Assembly (NCBI GenBank): GCA_016844295.1
Contig: JAENIV010000008.1
Coordinates: 1-30,353 of the forward strand
DNA from: Candidatus Berkelbacteria bacterium
GTDB lineage: Bacteria > Patescibacteriota > UBA1384 > UBA12157 > JAENIV01
Reading direction: 5' to 3'
DNA length: 30,353 bases
Position numbers and translations under genes: made by a program. Positions 10,171 through 18,721 of this stretch are shown here, one piece after another. The notes beneath the pieces are model-generated. The model saw only the letters and a program-made list of their open reading frames with translations, was not told the origin of the DNA and made no database searches. Position 1 is the stretch's first letter. The number at the start of each line of letters is the position of its first letter.

Positions 10171-10323
10171 TCGGGATGGCGAGACTCGAACTCGCGACCT
10201 TCCGCCCAAATTCGGGGCGACTGGATTCGAACCAGCGGTCTCCAGACCCCCAGCCTGGCGCTTTACCAACTAAGCTACGCCCCGAATTTTTGGCGGACAC
10301 ACTACCAACTGTGCTACATCCCG
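10171..10323 (-). ncRNA. Outer tRNA-Pro-like shell whose anticodon loop is replaced by a complete tRNA-Pro(GGG). 5' half 10323-10293, 3' half 10205-10171
   Basis: Acceptor CGGGATG/CATCCCG + A73; D-arm GCAC-AGTTGGTA-GTGT; anticodon stem TCCGC/GCGGA; variable loop AGGTC; T-arm GCGAG-TTCGAGT-CTCGC. Confidence 0.85.
10212..10284 (-). tRNA. tRNA-Pro(GGG), nested; CCA not encoded
   Basis: 73-nt cloverleaf: CGGGGCG/CGCCCCG, GCTT-AGTTGGTA-AAGC, CCAGG-CTGGGGG-TCTGG, GCTGG-TTCGAAT-CCAGT, A73. Confidence 0.95.
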
Positions 10324-13799: not shown

Positions 13800-13999
13800 G
13801 CCGGGTTAGCCCCGGTTTGATAATCAAACTAGGTAAACTCCGCAGTCTGCCGAGATAGCGAAGTGGCCAAACGCATCTGACTGTAAATCAGACGCCCTTG
13901 TGGCTTCGGGGGTTCGAATCCCTCTCTCGGCACCAATCCTGGCGGAGTTCATCCCGGAACTAAGTTGAGGGAGGAGTGCAAATCTCTCGCTCGGCACCA
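13800..13999 (+). ncRNA. Outer tRNA-Tyr-like shell enclosing tRNA-Tyr(GTA)
   Basis: Acceptor GCCGGGT/GCTCGGC + A + CCA. Clamp helix AACTCCGC (13836-13843)/GCGGAGTT (13942-13949). Variable-arm hairpin GTTC-ATCCCG-GAAC. Bulged T-arm GAGGAG-TGCAAAT-CTCTC. D region replaced by palindrome GGTTTGAT-A-ATCAAACT. Confidence 0.7.
13849..13935 (+). tRNA. tRNA-Tyr(GTA), nested; CCA encoded
   Basis: GCCGAGA/TCTCGGC, TCTGA-CTGTAAA-TCAGA, long variable arm, GGGGG-TTCGAAT-CCCTC, A-CCA. Confidence 0.96.
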
Positions 14000-14081: not shown

Positions 14082-14103
14082 TATTATTAAAAAGAAAGGT
14101 AAA

Positions 14104-14286
14104 ATGGCAAAAGCAAAGGCAGTGTTAATACATCTAGAGTGTACTGAATGTAAAAGTAAAAACTATACTACGGCTAAAAACCCCACAGAAAACAAAGAAA
14201 AACTTAGATTAAATAAGTTTTGTAAAAAATGCCGCAAACATACTCCTCACAAAGAGGTAAAAATTTCTAAAGCCAAGAAGAAATAA
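14104..14286 (+). CDS. rpmG: 50S ribosomal protein bL33, zinc-binding (C+) form
   Basis: LECTECKSKNYTTAKN...KLRLNKFCKKCRKHTPHKE. Confidence 0.96.
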   Translation: MAKAKAVLIHLECTECKSKNYTTAKNPTENKEKLRLNKFCKKCRKHTPHKEVKISKAKKK

Positions 14287-14299
14287 CCAAACAAATTAT

Positions 14300-14328
14300 T
14301 ATACACGCATCGAATGGGCAGATATAAT
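14300..14328 (+). promoter_or_regulatory. Putative sigma70 promoter for the Trp shell/tRNA-Trp
   Basis: TATACA (14300-14305), 17-nt spacer, TATAAT (14323-14328). Confidence 0.5.
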
Positions 14329-14352
14329 CATGAATGCTGATAATATTTTCTA

Positions 14353-14569
14353 GGGGGTGTGCGAATGCTGGCAACCTTCAATGGGTGCTGGCAAAGCCAG
14401 TACAACGGTCTGGATGCCGGTCTTAACTCATCCTGCTGGGAGCTTAGTTAAGTGGTATAACGGAGGTCTCCAAAACCTCGGTCGGGGGTTCGATTCCCTC
14501 AGCTCCTGCCAAAATGAGTTAAGACGCGCAAAACCGTAGACCGGGGTTCGATTCCCTGCACCCCTGCCA
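14353..14569 (+). ncRNA. Outer tRNA-Trp-like shell enclosing tRNA-Trp(CCA)
   Basis: Acceptor GGGGGTG/CACCCCT + G + CCA. Anticodon stem ACGGT (14405-14409)/ACCGT (14533-14537). T-arm CGGGG-TTCGATT-CCCTG. D-like hairpin GTGCTGGC-AAA-GCCAGTAC. Perfect 12-bp inverted repeat 14420-14431/14514-14525 around the inner tRNA. Confidence 0.8.
14438..14511 (+). tRNA. tRNA-Trp(CCA), nested; CCA end encoded
   Basis: GGGAGCT/AGCTCCT, GTTA-AGTGGTA-TAAC, GAGGT-CTCCAAA-ACCTC, GGGGG-TTCGATT-CCCTC, G-CCA. Confidence 0.96.
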
Positions 14570-14582
14570 GTTTTCGTGGATA

Positions 14583-14611
14583 TTGACGCTCAAAAATTTT
14601 ACGGTTATACT
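14583..14611 (+). promoter_or_regulatory. Putative sigma70 promoter of the pilus operon
   Basis: TTGACG (14583-14588), 17-nt spacer, TATACT (14606-14611); AAGGAGG RBS before the TTG start at 14647. Confidence 0.75.
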
Positions 14612-14646
14612 TAAATTAAGATAATTACTCCTAATAAGGAGGGAGT

Positions 14647-16923
14647 TTGTTTTTGAATATTAATACAGATAAAAGCCAAAAACGCCTATTCGATGTTCTT
14701 CTTGAAAATGGAAAAATAAATCCGCAAAACTCTCAATCTTTAAGACTGTTGTCAAACCAAGAATTAGACAACAGGCTTAGATCTCAAAATATAGTTTCTG
14801 ATGAAGATATTAATAAGGGATACTCGAGTATTTTAAATATTCCATACGTTGATCTCAAAGACAAAACAATCCTCAGGGAAATTTTAAATATTATTCCTGA
14901 AAATTTAGCCCAGGAATATAAAATAATTGCTTATGATCAAAAAGAAAATATCTTGAAAGTGGCGATTGCTAACCCAGGTAAACTCACAAGCAATCTTGAA
15001 AGAACTCTTAATGATATTAAGGCAAAAAAGAATATCAATATTGAAATTGCCATAACATCAATGGGGAATCTCAACAGCGCTTTAAGTCAATATCGAAATA
15101 TTAAGGAAGAAAAAACCATTCCGGAAATTAATGTTGAAATTCAATCTCCACAGCCTGCTATGGCTATGTCAACAAATACATTAAAAACAGTCGATTTGGA
15201 AAAAATACAAATACCCTTTGATGTTATTTCTAAATTCCCGGAAGATATTGCTCGCAAATATCAAATGGTCGTTTTCGAGGCGCCCCATTCGTCTTTTATT
15301 AAAGTTGCTGTCGCCGATCCTGATGATAAAAAAGTTAAAGAAATTTTAGAATTTGTCCGTGAAAAAAATGATATCGGGATTGAAGAGTATAAATCTACTC
15401 CCGGTCAAATCCATCTGGCCATGCAATACTATCAACCTCCGAAACCTGCAGTTTCAGCGTCTGTAGCAGTGCCAGCCACGTCTGTTCCCATTCAACAAGA
15501 AGTTGAAGAAAAGCCCAGGCAATTTGTTCCCAAGCCTCAAGCCCCGCTACCTCAGACAATACCGCTGAAACAAGAAGAAATGCCTATTAAAAAAACAGAT
15601 GACGAAACTCCTGAAATTAAACGAGAGGAAAAAGTTCCTGAGGTACAAAGTAAAATTGCGGTTACGCAACCAATTTTAAATCCCGAAGAAGGTGATTTAG
15701 ATAAATATCTAGGAATGGAAATCAAAGAAATAGGGGATTTATTGGCAATTGCTGAAGATAGTAACATCCCAAAAACTTTAGCTGCCGCGATTGCCTTAGC
15801 TGTTCGACGTAAGGCTTCAGACATCCACGTAGAACCAGCCGAAAAGAATATGCGAATCCGTTTCAGAGTTGATGGGATTTTGCGCGATATTATTAAACTG
15901 CCTTTGGAGGAACAACCGGCAATTATTTCTAGAATCAAAATTTTAGCCAAATTAAAAATCGATGAATCGCGCATTCCTCAAGATGGCCGTTTCGATTGTT
16001 CGACAGCCGGTCATCAAATAGATTTAAGAATCTCAACTTTGCCAACTGTTCATGGTGAAAAGGCTGCCATGAGAATCTTAGATAAATCCTTGAAAATGTA
16101 TACCATGGAAGAATTGGGGATAACAGGAAGGGGTTTAAAAATTCTCACGGAAAACATTGATAAACCTTACGGAGTGGTACTCTCTACCGGACCTACTGGA
16201 TCGGGTAAATCAACAACTTTGTATGCTATATTAAATCGAATTTCCACCGCCTCGGTAAATATTGTTACCCTGGAGGATCCCGTTGAATATGAGGTTCCGG
16301 GGATTAATCAATGTCAGATAAAGCCAAAAATCGGTTTTACATTCGCCAATGGTCTAAGAAGCGTTCTCCGCCAGGATCCGAATATTATTATGGTTGGGGA
16401 AATCAGAGACTCGGAAACGGCTTCTTTGGCAACCCATGCTGCTTTGACCGGTCACTTAGTATTATCCACTTTACACACGAATGACGCCACCGGGGCTCTT
16501 CCTAGACTTATCAACATGGGGGTTGAACCGTTTTTAATTACTTCATCAATAAATTGTGTTATTGGCCAAAGATTGGTGAGACGGCTCTGTCAAAAATGTA
16601 AAAAACCCGCACATATTCCTGACCCTGTTTTTAATGAAATTGAAGAACAATTGGCCAGATTTAATTTGCCAAAGCCTTATCAATTTTTTGAAGGACGCGG
16701 ATGTCCGGAATGTGATCAAGGGTATAAAGGAAGAGTCGGCATTTATGAAGTATTTGCTATGAGCGATAAAATTGAATCGCTAGCAATTGACCGTCGGCCT
16801 GCTTCAGAGATCCGAGAAGCAGCAATTAAGGAAGGCATGGTAACCATGAAACATGACGGACTTTTCAAAGCCCTTAAGGGCATCACAAGCGTTAACGAAG
16901 TCTTAAGAGTTGTAACAATATAA
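14647..16923 (+). CDS. pilB: Type IV pilus assembly ATPase (PilB/GspE family) with duplicated N-terminal domain
   Basis: ASDIHVEP, Walker A GPTGSGKST, TLEDPVEY, LRQDPNIIMVGEIRD, TGHLVLSTLHTN, tetracysteine CQKC...CPEC. Confidence 0.95.
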   Translation: MFLNINTDKSQKRLFDVLLENGKINPQNSQSLRLLSNQELDNRLRSQNIVSDEDINKGYSSILNIPYVDLKDKTILREILNIIPENLAQEYKIIAYDQKENILKVAIANPGKLTSNLERTLNDIKAKKNINIEIAITSMGNLNSALSQYRNIKEEKTIPEINVEIQSPQPAMAMSTNTLKTVDLEKIQIPFDVISKFPEDIARKYQMVVFEAPHSSFIKVAVADPDDKKVKEILEFVREKNDIGIEEYKSTPGQIHLAMQYYQPPKPAVSASVAVPATSVPIQQEVEEKPRQFVPKPQAPLPQTIPLKQEEMPIKKTDDETPEIKREEKVPEVQSKIAVTQPILNPEEGDLDKYLGMEIKEIGDLLAIAEDSNIPKTLAAAIALAVRRKASDIHVEPAEKNMRIRFRVDGILRDIIKLPLEEQPAIISRIKILAKLKIDESRIPQDGRFDCSTAGHQIDLRISTLPTVHGEKAAMRILDKSLKMYTMEELGITGRGLKILTENIDKPYGVVLSTGPTGSGKSTTLYAILNRISTASVNIVTLEDPVEYEVPGINQCQIKPKIGFTFANGLRSVLRQDPNIIMVGEIRDSETASLATHAALTGHLVLSTLHTNDATGALPRLINMGVEPFLITSSINCVIGQRLVRRLCQKCKKPAHIPDPVFNEIEEQLARFNLPKPYQFFEGRGCPECDQGYKGRVGIYEVFAMSDKIESLAIDRRPASEIREAAIKEGMVTMKHDGLFKALKGITSVNEVLRVVTI

Positions 16924-18118: not shown

Positions 18119-18194
18119 GCAAAGCTCAATAAATTATTCTAATTAACTTAATTATTCTAATTTCTAATCAAACCCTAATGATAATGAAGAGTAA

Positions 18195-18635
18195 TGTCAT
18201 TCTGAGGCGTAGCCGAAGAATCTCCCATGAATATGGGTTGGTATGAGTAAAAAATATTACGTTTATATCGCTACGAATAAATCCAACACTCTTTATACTG
18301 GTGTAACTAACGATATACAAAGAAGAATGTATGAACATAAATTTAAGTTTATCAAGGGATTTACAGAAAAATATAACATTAATAAATTAGTATATTTTCA
18401 GGAATTTAATAATCCGAATGAAGCAATTACAGTTGAAAAGAAGATAAAAGGTTGGACAAGAGCAAAAAAGATAAACTTAATAAAAAGTTTGAATCCCACC
18501 TTTAAGGACTTACTTGAGTCATGTTGAACAATCGTGTAATTCTGGAGCATTGTCATGTTGAGCGAAGCGAAACATCTCTGGCGAATGCCAGTTCTCAAAC
18601 AAGTTGAGAGATCCTTCGTTTCACTCAGGATGACA
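18195..18635 (+). mobile_element. GIY-YIG nuclease cassette bounded by REP-like repeats (three copies)
   Basis: TGTCATTCTGAGGCGTAGCCGAAGAATCTC (18195-18224) and TGTCATGTTGAGCGAAGCGAAACATCTC (18551-18578) in forward orientation; inverted copy GAGATCCTTCGTTTCACTCAGGATGACA (18608-18635). Confidence 0.7.
18243..18527 (+). CDS. Small GIY-YIG nuclease family protein
   Basis: YYVYI...LYTGVTNDIQRRMYEHK...FTEKYNINKLVYFQEF...AITVEKKIKGWTRAKKINLI. Confidence 0.92.
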   Translation: MSKKYYVYIATNKSNTLYTGVTNDIQRRMYEHKFKFIKGFTEKYNINKLVYFQEFNNPNEAITVEKKIKGWTRAKKINLIKSLNPTFKDLLESC

Positions 18636-18721
18636 TGTACCAATTTAACATTTTTGATTTGAAATTTGAATTTACAAGTAATATGATATAGTAGTTATGT
18701 GGATAAAAAGTGAGGGGTTTA

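Follow-up and report, generated by a model that had tools for sequence, protein, structure and literature searches.

What does it mean when one tRNA gene lies inside another? The question is raised by positions 14353-14569 of a 30,353-nucleotide (nt) stretch of DNA (the window), which is contig C23 (JAENIV010000008.1) of a Candidatus Berkelbacteria metagenome bin (GCA_016844295.1; G000) of 876 kb in 91 contigs and 92% completeness; the genomes of its relatives measure 0.5-1.5 Mb, a size typical of Patescibacteria (CPR, the Candidate Phyla Radiation). At these positions a tRNA-shaped shell surrounds a 117-nt insert, and the insert consists of a perfect 12-base-pair (bp) inverted repeat flanking a tRNA-Trp(CCA) gene. 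The initial annotation of the window had offered two accounts of this arrangement, one an intron-like insert whose removal would religate the shell into a tRNA with a GCA anticodon, and the other a mini-element with terminal inverted repeats. The second proved the better of the two; the locus has the look of a scar left by a small cassette with palindromic ends, of a kind that enters Patescibacteria tRNA genes with a spare copy of its own, and not the look of a novel type of intron, and we consider it likely that such a cassette, one of a family linked to GIY-YIG nucleases, split the resident tRNA-Trp gene and supplied its replacement.

A complete tRNA-Trp gene within a disrupted one

All features of the locus are given on the forward (+) strand. 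The shell is made up of a 5' half (14353-14411), delimited by its fold and by alignment to the intact tRNA-Trp genes of two relatives (L058 and L030), and a 3' half (14529-14569). The halves pair in a 7-bp acceptor stem, GGGGGTG (14353-14359) with CACCCCT (14559-14565), which includes a G1.U72 pair, and in a 5-bp anticodon stem, ACGGT (14405-14409) with ACCGT (14533-14537). The 5' half also holds U8/G9, A26 and C32 U33 (14410-14411); the 3' half begins with C35 A36 A37 A38 (14529-14532) and continues through a variable loop (AGAC) and a T arm (CGGGG-TTCGATT-CCCTG, 14542-14558) to G73 (14566) and a CCA end (14567-14569). The D region carries ~30 extra bases relative to the intact L058 and L030 genes, with which the 5' half can be aligned only once the extras are removed; among them are a 9-nt direct repeat, TGCTGGCAA (14366-14374 and 14386-14394), and a hairpin, CTGGC-AAA-GCCAG (14388-14400).

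The insert (14412-14528), whose boundaries were placed by comparison with the intact loop CTCCAAA, replaces C34 and interrupts the Trp-type body directly after U33. It comprises a leader (14412-14437), the inner tRNA-Trp(CCA) gene (14438-14511) and a trailer (14512-14528), with the left arm of the inverted repeat, GTCTTAACTCAT, at 14420-14431 and the right arm, ATGAGTTAAGAC, at 14514-14525; the perfect 12-bp pairing is lengthened by TGC (14415-14417) and GCA (14528-14530). The initial annotation had described the repeat, the Trp-type ends of the shell (G1.U72, G73 and CCA) and the inner gene, and each of these is present in the sequence. It had also pointed to a repeated TCCTGC (14431-14436 and 14504-14509), which is there, but is only a 6-mer and was not found to be significant. 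The inner gene, called by ARAGORN (as were the other tRNAs) and scoring 64.3 bits with Rfam, is intact and encodes its own CCA end; it is the sole tRNA-Trp that ARAGORN found in the genome, and is presumably the functional copy.

Between the left flank, which ends in ACGGTCT, and the right flank, CAAAACCGT, a single base (C34) has been replaced and nothing duplicated; no target-site duplication was found at the insert junctions. The inverted repeat has no second copy in the genome. There is no open reading frame (ORF) within the cassette, the nearest GIY-YIG gene being at 18243-18527, and no integrase among the neighbours of the locus, where tRNA-Tyr, tRNA-Thr(GGT) and rpmG (L33; 14104-14286) precede the nested tRNA-Trp, and pilB-, pilT- and pilC-like genes follow it.

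The minimum-free-energy fold of 14353-14569 is the nested structure itself (-93.5 kcal/mol, z = -4.15), and none of 200 shuffled sequences was as stable. Of the 43 tRNA genes of the genome that could be tested, the inner tRNA-Trp has the longest helix between leader and trailer, at 12 bp, a length reached by 0 of 200 shuffles. A promoter-like site, TATACA-17-TATAAT (14300-14328), recognised by consensus match only, lies 25 nt upstream of the shell; a consensus search between the 5' half of the shell and the inner tRNA found no such site. This is presumably the old tRNA-Trp promoter, which, as read from the sequence, would now give a single transcript of the inner tRNA with a shell half on either side; because the only promoter-like site precedes the shell and none precedes the inner gene, the inner tRNA is probably transcribed through the 5' half of the shell.

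The shell as a broken tRNA-Trp gene

To judge by its sequence, the shell is a broken tRNA-Trp(CCA) gene and not a design for tRNA-Cys. Its split loop, CT at the end of one half and CAAA at the start of the other, is a damaged form of the Trp loop CTCCAAA in which a G occupies the place of C34. The intact arm, ACGGT-CTCCAAA-ACCGT (ACGGTCTCCAAAACCGT), occurs in 35 of 401 sampled genomes of the phylum, and the intact tRNA-Trp genes of three of these (L030, L038 and L042) also have the acceptor GGGGGTG/CACCCCT, U8-G9, A-ACGGT-CT, T loop and G73-CCA of the shell.

A search for uninterrupted alleles in relatives, proposed by the initial annotation, identified one at the same locus by synteny. Closer metagenomic relatives were recovered with rpmG as a handle, and in one of these (L058) rpmG, tRNA-Trp and a pilB-like gene stand in the same order, with amino-acid (aa) identities of 83% for rpmG and 38% for the pilB-like gene. 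The L058 tRNA-Trp is uninterrupted, and its anticodon arm and T arm equal those of the shell. Over the 3' half the shell is identical to the L058 gene at 38 of 41 positions, versus 31 of 41 for the inner gene; of the three mismatches with L058, one is in the variable loop and the other two are in the acceptor, where the 5' strand has compensating changes. Acceptor, anticodon and D stems all differ between the inner gene and the outer. The filled locus and the syntenic, uninterrupted gene of shell type in L058 form the pair of alleles that characterises a homing element. Public sequencing runs (X1, from 2021; X2, from 2018; X3; X4) were also compared by means of their Logan contigs, at a coverage of ~5x; one contig of X3 runs from the end of rpmG across unknown letters to 14529 and beyond, and is consistent with another uninterrupted allele.

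The tRNA-Cys reading is rejected in view of the match of the shell to Trp genes together with the presence of a separate tRNA-Cys(GCA); the latter, for which the initial annotation had suggested looking, was found at C18:21653-21727 and has the normal U73, where the shell has G73. The opposite assignment, in which the inner gene would be native (it resembles family relatives) and the shell foreign, was dropped because tRNA-Trp is highly variable in type even within the family, because the closest intact relatives of the inner gene lie in another family of the class (96% in G088, versus 92% for the best match in its own family), and because the syntenic L058 gene is of the shell type.

Recurrence of nested tRNA genes in the genome

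When the 44 tRNA genes were compared by BLAST with their own genome, half-gene fragments were found next to many of them. A strict scan for shells, which called for a downstream T arm and then seven bases pairing perfectly with an upstream 7-mer, gave complete shells (7/7 acceptor pairing plus T arm) around at least seven genes: Met, Arg(GCG), Pro(GGG), Trp, Phe, Ala(TGC) and Ala(CGC). Around Pro(CGG) and Tyr the shells are degenerate, and nested or fragmented tRNA genes are spread over contigs C17, C21, C78, C84, C85, C91, C77, C58, C86, C42, C33 and C6. The plan is constant: a 5' half of the same isotype comes first, then a leader and an intact tRNA, and after these a trailer whose sequence is complementary to that of the leader, and a 3' half; leader and trailer pair over 12 bp for Trp, 11 for Ala, 9 for Arg-TCG, and 8 for both Tyr and Phe. 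Breaks are located in the anticodon loop (Trp, Pro, Ala, Met, Ser), in the D loop (Asp, Ser) or at the position-26 junction (Arg, Gln, Val), and bare hairpins have also been inserted into the D and T loops of shells. All insertions that could be placed fall in single-stranded parts of the cloverleaf; if the shells were simply dead, this preference for loops would be explicable only through the mechanism of insertion, which we regard as a puzzle.

Two other shells lie in the window. At 10171-10323 on the reverse (-) strand, a tRNA-Pro(GGG) (10211-10285) sits inside a near-perfect tRNA-Pro body of which only the anticodon loop has been replaced; with its acceptor CGGGATG/CATCCCG, an intact D arm free of inserts, the stem TCCGC/GCGGA and a T arm, this shell looks the youngest in the window. 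At 13800-13999, tRNA-Tyr (13849-13935) is held in a Tyr-type shell by an 8-bp clamp (AACTCCGC/GCGGAGTT), and this shell, too, derives from a real type of gene: its unusual T arm (GGAGTGCAAATCTCTC) and its acceptor GCCGGGT match the intact tRNA-Tyr of L059 (1315-1401).

Elsewhere in the genome, two pieces on C85 that are 100% identical to the Ala(GGC) gene of C27 (its positions 1-27 and 41-72) flank a GIY-YIG ORF and tRNA-Ala(TGC); in the ~30-nt central stretch that the flanking fragments have in common, a CTTG tetraloop takes the place of the anticodon loop. A D-loop hairpin, ACTAT-stem-loop-stem-ATCAG, with compensatory changes in its stem, is common to the Phe, Met and Ala(CGC) shells. As a candidate for a widespread RNA element, this motif (GGTNN-ACTAT..ATCAG-AGC) was rejected: it occurs three times in the genome and in 1 of 161 other genomes of the class, is local to the lineage, and is absent from the Trp shell. 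ARAGORN found no tRNA-Thr(TGT) in the genome; relatives have one in the Tyr/Thr/rpmG/Trp cluster, and here the gene may lie outside the 92%-complete assembly or may have been lost.

Linkage of GIY-YIG genes to tRNA genes

Small GIY-YIG ORFs number 14 in the genome, and 9 of them lie no more than 250 nt from a tRNA gene, a zone that makes up 2.9% of the genome (binomial P ~2e-11). The same tendency is seen in two relatives whose genomes are single contigs (complete), in which 5/5 (G003) and 2/4 (G009) of the small GIY-YIG ORFs adjoin tRNA genes, or 7/9 in total. At Asp (C77), Ala(TGC) (C85), Ser(GGA) (C58) and Gln (C86) the ORF is placed between the old 5' fragment and the intact tRNA, and ends in the first bases of that tRNA.

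In the window, the GIY-YIG ORF at 18243-18527 (94 aa) is located between the pilT- and pilC-like genes; because it is bounded by imperfect inverted repeats (18154-18172/18653-18671 and 18194-18206/18624-18636), we take 18154-18671 to be a nuclease cassette outside any tRNA gene. L058 likewise holds a GIY-YIG ORF with flanking inverted repeats of ~30 nt between tRNA-Thr and rpmG (1175-1500), and, directly after its tRNA-Trp, a hairpin cassette of ~60 nt followed by a second copy of the 3' end of that tRNA (TGGTCTGCCA; 1771-1850). Hairpins, tRNA cassettes and nuclease cassettes may constitute one family whose members differ in cargo.

The cassette and its kin in other organisms

In most relatives of the same family (G008, G001 and L059, for example) tRNA-Trp follows rpmG directly and has no shell. 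Signs of the same process are nevertheless frequent: in L003 a family-type 3' end follows a different tRNA-Trp; L015 has, upstream of tRNA-Trp, a 5' half whose D loop bears a hairpin; L057 contains a Thr shell with tRNA-Thr(TGT) inside; and a full-length copy of tRNA-Trp in L008, which is sequence from G009, bears hairpins in its anticodon and T loops, the anticodon loop being broken after U33, just as in the Trp shell.

The cassette itself is present in a diverged organism. One 771-nt contig of X4 matches 14404-14539 with only three differences, over both junctions, the inverted repeat, the inner tRNA and the anticodon stem; on the same contig tRNA-Thr has one difference, and rpmG is mostly <85% identical. 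In X4 the stretch between rpmG and the anticodon stem has 80 nt fewer than here, and these coordinates would fit a shell with a D arm of normal length.

Sequence is held in common between isotypes as well. A 24-mer, TTCGCCTTTAGGCATGCTTCCTGC (a T loop with its insert), occurs in both the tRNA-Trp pseudo-copy of G009 (L008 1579-1790, oriented) and the Thr shell of L057 (252-520), and the GC-rich cassette ends GCCTGCCCGCC and GGCAGGCGGG occur in both the L057 Thr cassette and the Arg cassette of G000. Because these sequences are shared across isotypes and hosts, some cassettes or inserts appear to travel between them.

A model for the origin of the locus

We reasoned that the locus probably arose as follows. 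The anticodon loop of a resident tRNA-Trp(CCA) gene would have been cut between U33 and C35, and into this gap the 117-nt cassette, with its 12-bp inverted repeat ends and its complete tRNA-Trp(CCA), would have been copied. The old gene, left with no anticodon loop, would then have been dead, its D arm later gathering insertions, and the incoming copy would have taken over its job. The cassette probably needs no promoter of its own, because it sits within an already transcribed tRNA gene; the old promoter would transcribe the 5' half of the shell, the inner tRNA and the 3' half as a single RNA, in which a long stalk would form from the shell halves and the inverted repeat, and the inner tRNA would be freed by RNase P and 3' processing. 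By analogy with homing endonucleases, the nuclease of fuller cassettes, in which a GIY-YIG gene for ~85 aa lies just upstream of the replacement tRNA, would cut uninterrupted tRNA genes, and the cassette would be copied in during repair. The Trp copy would be a derivative lacking the nuclease, which is either moved in trans or not mobile. Copying of the homing type, in the wake of a double-strand break, is favoured over transposition because there is no target-site duplication (as in a homing element), relatives hold filled and intact alleles, and the nuclease genes are linked to tRNA genes.

Several observations weigh against this model. The Trp cassette itself is without the nuclease gene that its sister cassettes have, and the GIY-YIG proteins (~85 aa) consist of the catalytic domain only, with no recognisable DNA-binding domain, and match models of intron and phage homing endonucleases (NCBIfam, PHROG) only below threshold; the cleavage activity and specificity ascribed to them would follow by analogy. 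Inverted repeats play no part in classical homing; the sequence of the repeat changes from cassette to cassette, and the one here has a single copy in the genome. Classical homing leaves both the repeats and the restriction of insertions to loops unexplained. L058 is only moderately close, and the 'empty site' is identified by synteny and not by strain-level polymorphism; the Logan contigs of X1 and X2 are fragmented at tRNA-like repeats, and among the matches listed contained no spanning piece and no strain-level polymorphism between filled and empty sites. An exact scan for the inverted-repeat pair, with a gap of 75-100 nt, gave no match in collections of assembled-genome or metagenome contigs, and in a BLAST search of 14396-14545 against 162 genomes of the class the tRNA part alone matched, and never leader or trailer. 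Finally, all stems of the shell but the D stem still pair, suggesting either that the event was recent or that the shell is under some constraint.

Alternative explanations

If the locus were intron-like, the 116-nt insert would be excised and the shell religated into a GCA (or CCA) tRNA, giving two tRNAs from one locus. On paper the excision proposed by the initial annotation works, since deletion of 14412-14527 leaves a 7-nt loop, CT-GCA-AA, on a 5-pair stem, and a helix closes the insert, a feature of many introns. As a real product it fails: the religated shell would not be a normal tRNA because its D arm carries the ~30 extra bases, its G73 is a discriminator of the Trp and not of the Cys type, a tRNA-Cys with U73 already exists, and intact versions of the shell read CCA. 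Nor is there a sign of splicing machinery. Rfam, scanned at the gathering threshold over the window and at E-values up to 10 over 14290-14640, returned just the inner tRNA and noise, with no match to the group I model (RF00028) in either scan; group I introns, with their conserved P3-P9 catalytic core, usually take at least 200 nt, and 74 of the 117 nt of the insert are tRNA, which leaves too little for a catalytic core. In the predicted fold a 5x2 internal loop at the shell junction is followed by 3 bp, a 2x2 loop and the 12-bp helix, which is not a 3-4-3 bulge-helix-bulge, and no match to the tRNA-splicing endonuclease EndA (PF01974) was found in the 92%-complete genome, in a search whose control was positive in 4/4 archaeal genomes. 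The inverted repeat, whose conservation in relatives the initial annotation had named as a test, is not conserved in the GTDB relatives searched. We regard an intron as very improbable. An assembly artefact, in which tRNA-Trp reads of two organisms were joined as a chimera, is hardly more than conceivable. The genome is a metagenome bin in 91 contigs, assemblers do break at tRNA repeats, and the Logan contigs of X1 and X2 do so nearby; against this, 86% and 54% of sampled 31-mers of 14100-14700 are present in X1 and X2, respectively, which are two separate public runs, the independent X4 contig crosses both junctions, the same architecture is seen in single-contig genomes such as G009, and a chimera would not give rise to a perfect inverted repeat of 12 bp set precisely within an anticodon loop.

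Two further readings accept the anatomy and differ as to its cause. Local rearrangement with no mobile element would have paralogues or a tandem duplication of tRNA-Trp recombine or be mis-repaired, with the repeat as a by-product of fold-back repair, from which palindromic insertions are a known result; the tandem or partial tRNA-Trp copies beside an intact gene in L008, L015 and L003 and the uniqueness of the repeat in the genome speak for it. We think it improbable, given that inner and outer genes, with 31/41 identity in the 3' half and differing stems, are not recent duplicates, that the same plan recurs at seven or more loci of different isotypes and is tied to GIY-YIG genes, and that X4, a diverged organism, has the same cassette and junctions. 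The locus may instead be a functional nested precursor, its shell selected, whatever its origin, as an RNA scaffold with a paired stalk and tRNA-like ends, which would aid transcription, folding or processing of the inner tRNA (by RNase P, RNase III or at the CCA end) or yield a two-piece anticodon-less RNA of its own. The pairing of the shell's acceptor, anticodon and T stems, a fold far better than that of shuffles, a promoter-like site before the shell and not before the inner tRNA, the CCA end that the shell retains, and the Pro(GGG) shell, a perfect cloverleaf minus its loop, are all in keeping with such a precursor. We nevertheless hold it to be unlikely: the shell is dispensable, because family relatives (G008, G001, L059) carry a tRNA-Trp after rpmG with no shell, the break site varies by locus and some shells are riddled with hairpins, the D arm of the Trp shell is wrecked, and no conservation of this shell was found elsewhere by BLAST in the 162 class genomes. 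More speculative still is the idea that, once the inner tRNA is released, the shell halves stay paired through the 7-bp acceptor stem, anticodon stem and T arm, with their own CCA, as a stable two-piece RNA used by the cell or the element; possible uses would be a decoy or immunity factor against tRNA-directed nucleases, a mimic that titrates tryptophanyl-tRNA synthetase or the CCA-adding enzyme, or a tag for the GIY-YIG nuclease. Were this true, the 'dead' shells would represent functional RNAs derived from tRNA, and a new class of them.

Comparison with known systems

The invasion of a tRNA gene by a cassette that brings a replacement has partial counterparts. Integrative elements and islands directed at tRNA genes, with a copy of the segment that they displace, were reportedly described by Williams in 2002 in Nucleic Acids Res. 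Such islands, which run to kilobases, rely on tyrosine or serine integrases; of the gene they restore no more than the 3' part, with an att duplication of that part alone, and they leave one fragment behind. Common to both are the insertion in a tRNA gene, often in the anticodon or T loop, the restoration of a working gene and the dead fragment left; here, however, the 117-nt insert comes with no integrase, delivers an entire tRNA and is flanked by both old halves. Miniature inverted-repeat transposable elements (MITEs) and the palindromic elements of Rickettsia are short, non-autonomous, bounded by inverted repeats and able to sit in genes. The Trp cassette resembles them in its perfect 12-bp terminal inverted repeats, as long as which none occurred in 200 shuffles, and differs in that it has no target-site duplication and no multi-copy family with this repeat, and in that its cargo is a functional tRNA matching the invaded gene.

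Phage T4 offers a closer parallel to the proposed mechanism, as its GIY-YIG nuclease SegB cuts the tRNA region of genomes that lack it, and repair then copies in the nuclease gene and flanking tRNA DNA, a route to preferential inheritance without an intron (PMC2330249, PMC13096335). In both systems small GIY-YIG genes are found among or beside tRNA genes. SegB, however, lies between intact tRNA genes, with no split gene, whereas here the target is broken and its same-isotype replacement lies inside; moreover, the proteins here are predicted to be catalytic domains only, of ~85 aa, the hosts are cellular Patescibacteria, not a phage, and the Trp cassette is without a nuclease.

Group I introns in the anticodon loops of bacterial tRNA genes (PMC3984707) resemble the cassette in being inserted there with no harm to the host, and often carry a homing endonuclease ORF; introns self-splice as RNA, whereas here no ribozyme was found and a spare gene is brought instead. 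The genome also has a candidate for such an intron. On C75 (L089 747-1343), a tRNA-Asn(GUU)-like gene is interrupted by ~550 nt; its 5' part ends in CTGT at ~782 and its 3' acceptor, CCGGGGA-G-CCA, lies at 1333-1343, although a clean 3' exon could not be reconstructed. The insert includes an HNH endonuclease ORF (822-1145) and a sub-threshold RF00028 core (26.6 bits, 1203-1290), and may be a true self-splicing tRNA intron because no other tRNA-Asn was found in the genome; this candidate sharpens the contrast with the ribozyme-less Trp cassette. The bulge-helix-bulge introns of archaea and eukaryotes, and split and permuted tRNAs, likewise interrupt loops, including non-canonical sites in the D and T loops (PMC4090602, PMC3978253), whereas here neither the motif nor the endonuclease was found, and an uninterrupted functional copy always lies inside or beside the broken gene.

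In the literature we found no description of tRNA-in-tRNA nesting or of GIY-YIG/tRNA cassettes in Patescibacteria; nearest to it came the work on T4 SegB (PMC2330249) and a paper on insertions in CPR rRNA genes, which makes no mention of tRNA (PMC11270868). If the proposed history is true, the tRNA genes of these ultra-small bacteria are repeatedly overwritten and exchanged horizontally, which bears on tRNA phylogeny and annotation (shells and fragments confuse tRNA finders), on the genome dynamics of Patescibacteria, and on what the uncharacterised stand-alone GIY-YIG proteins of ~85-100 aa, which are very common, may do; the locus is a concrete substrate for asking whether GIY-YIG nucleases read tRNA-gene DNA by its sequence or by its shape. 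It would also mean that selfish DNA has a third harmless route into an essential gene, one that differs both from splicing itself out, as introns and inteins do, and from restoring the end of the gene, as integrative islands do, in that it brings a full spare copy of the gene that it breaks.

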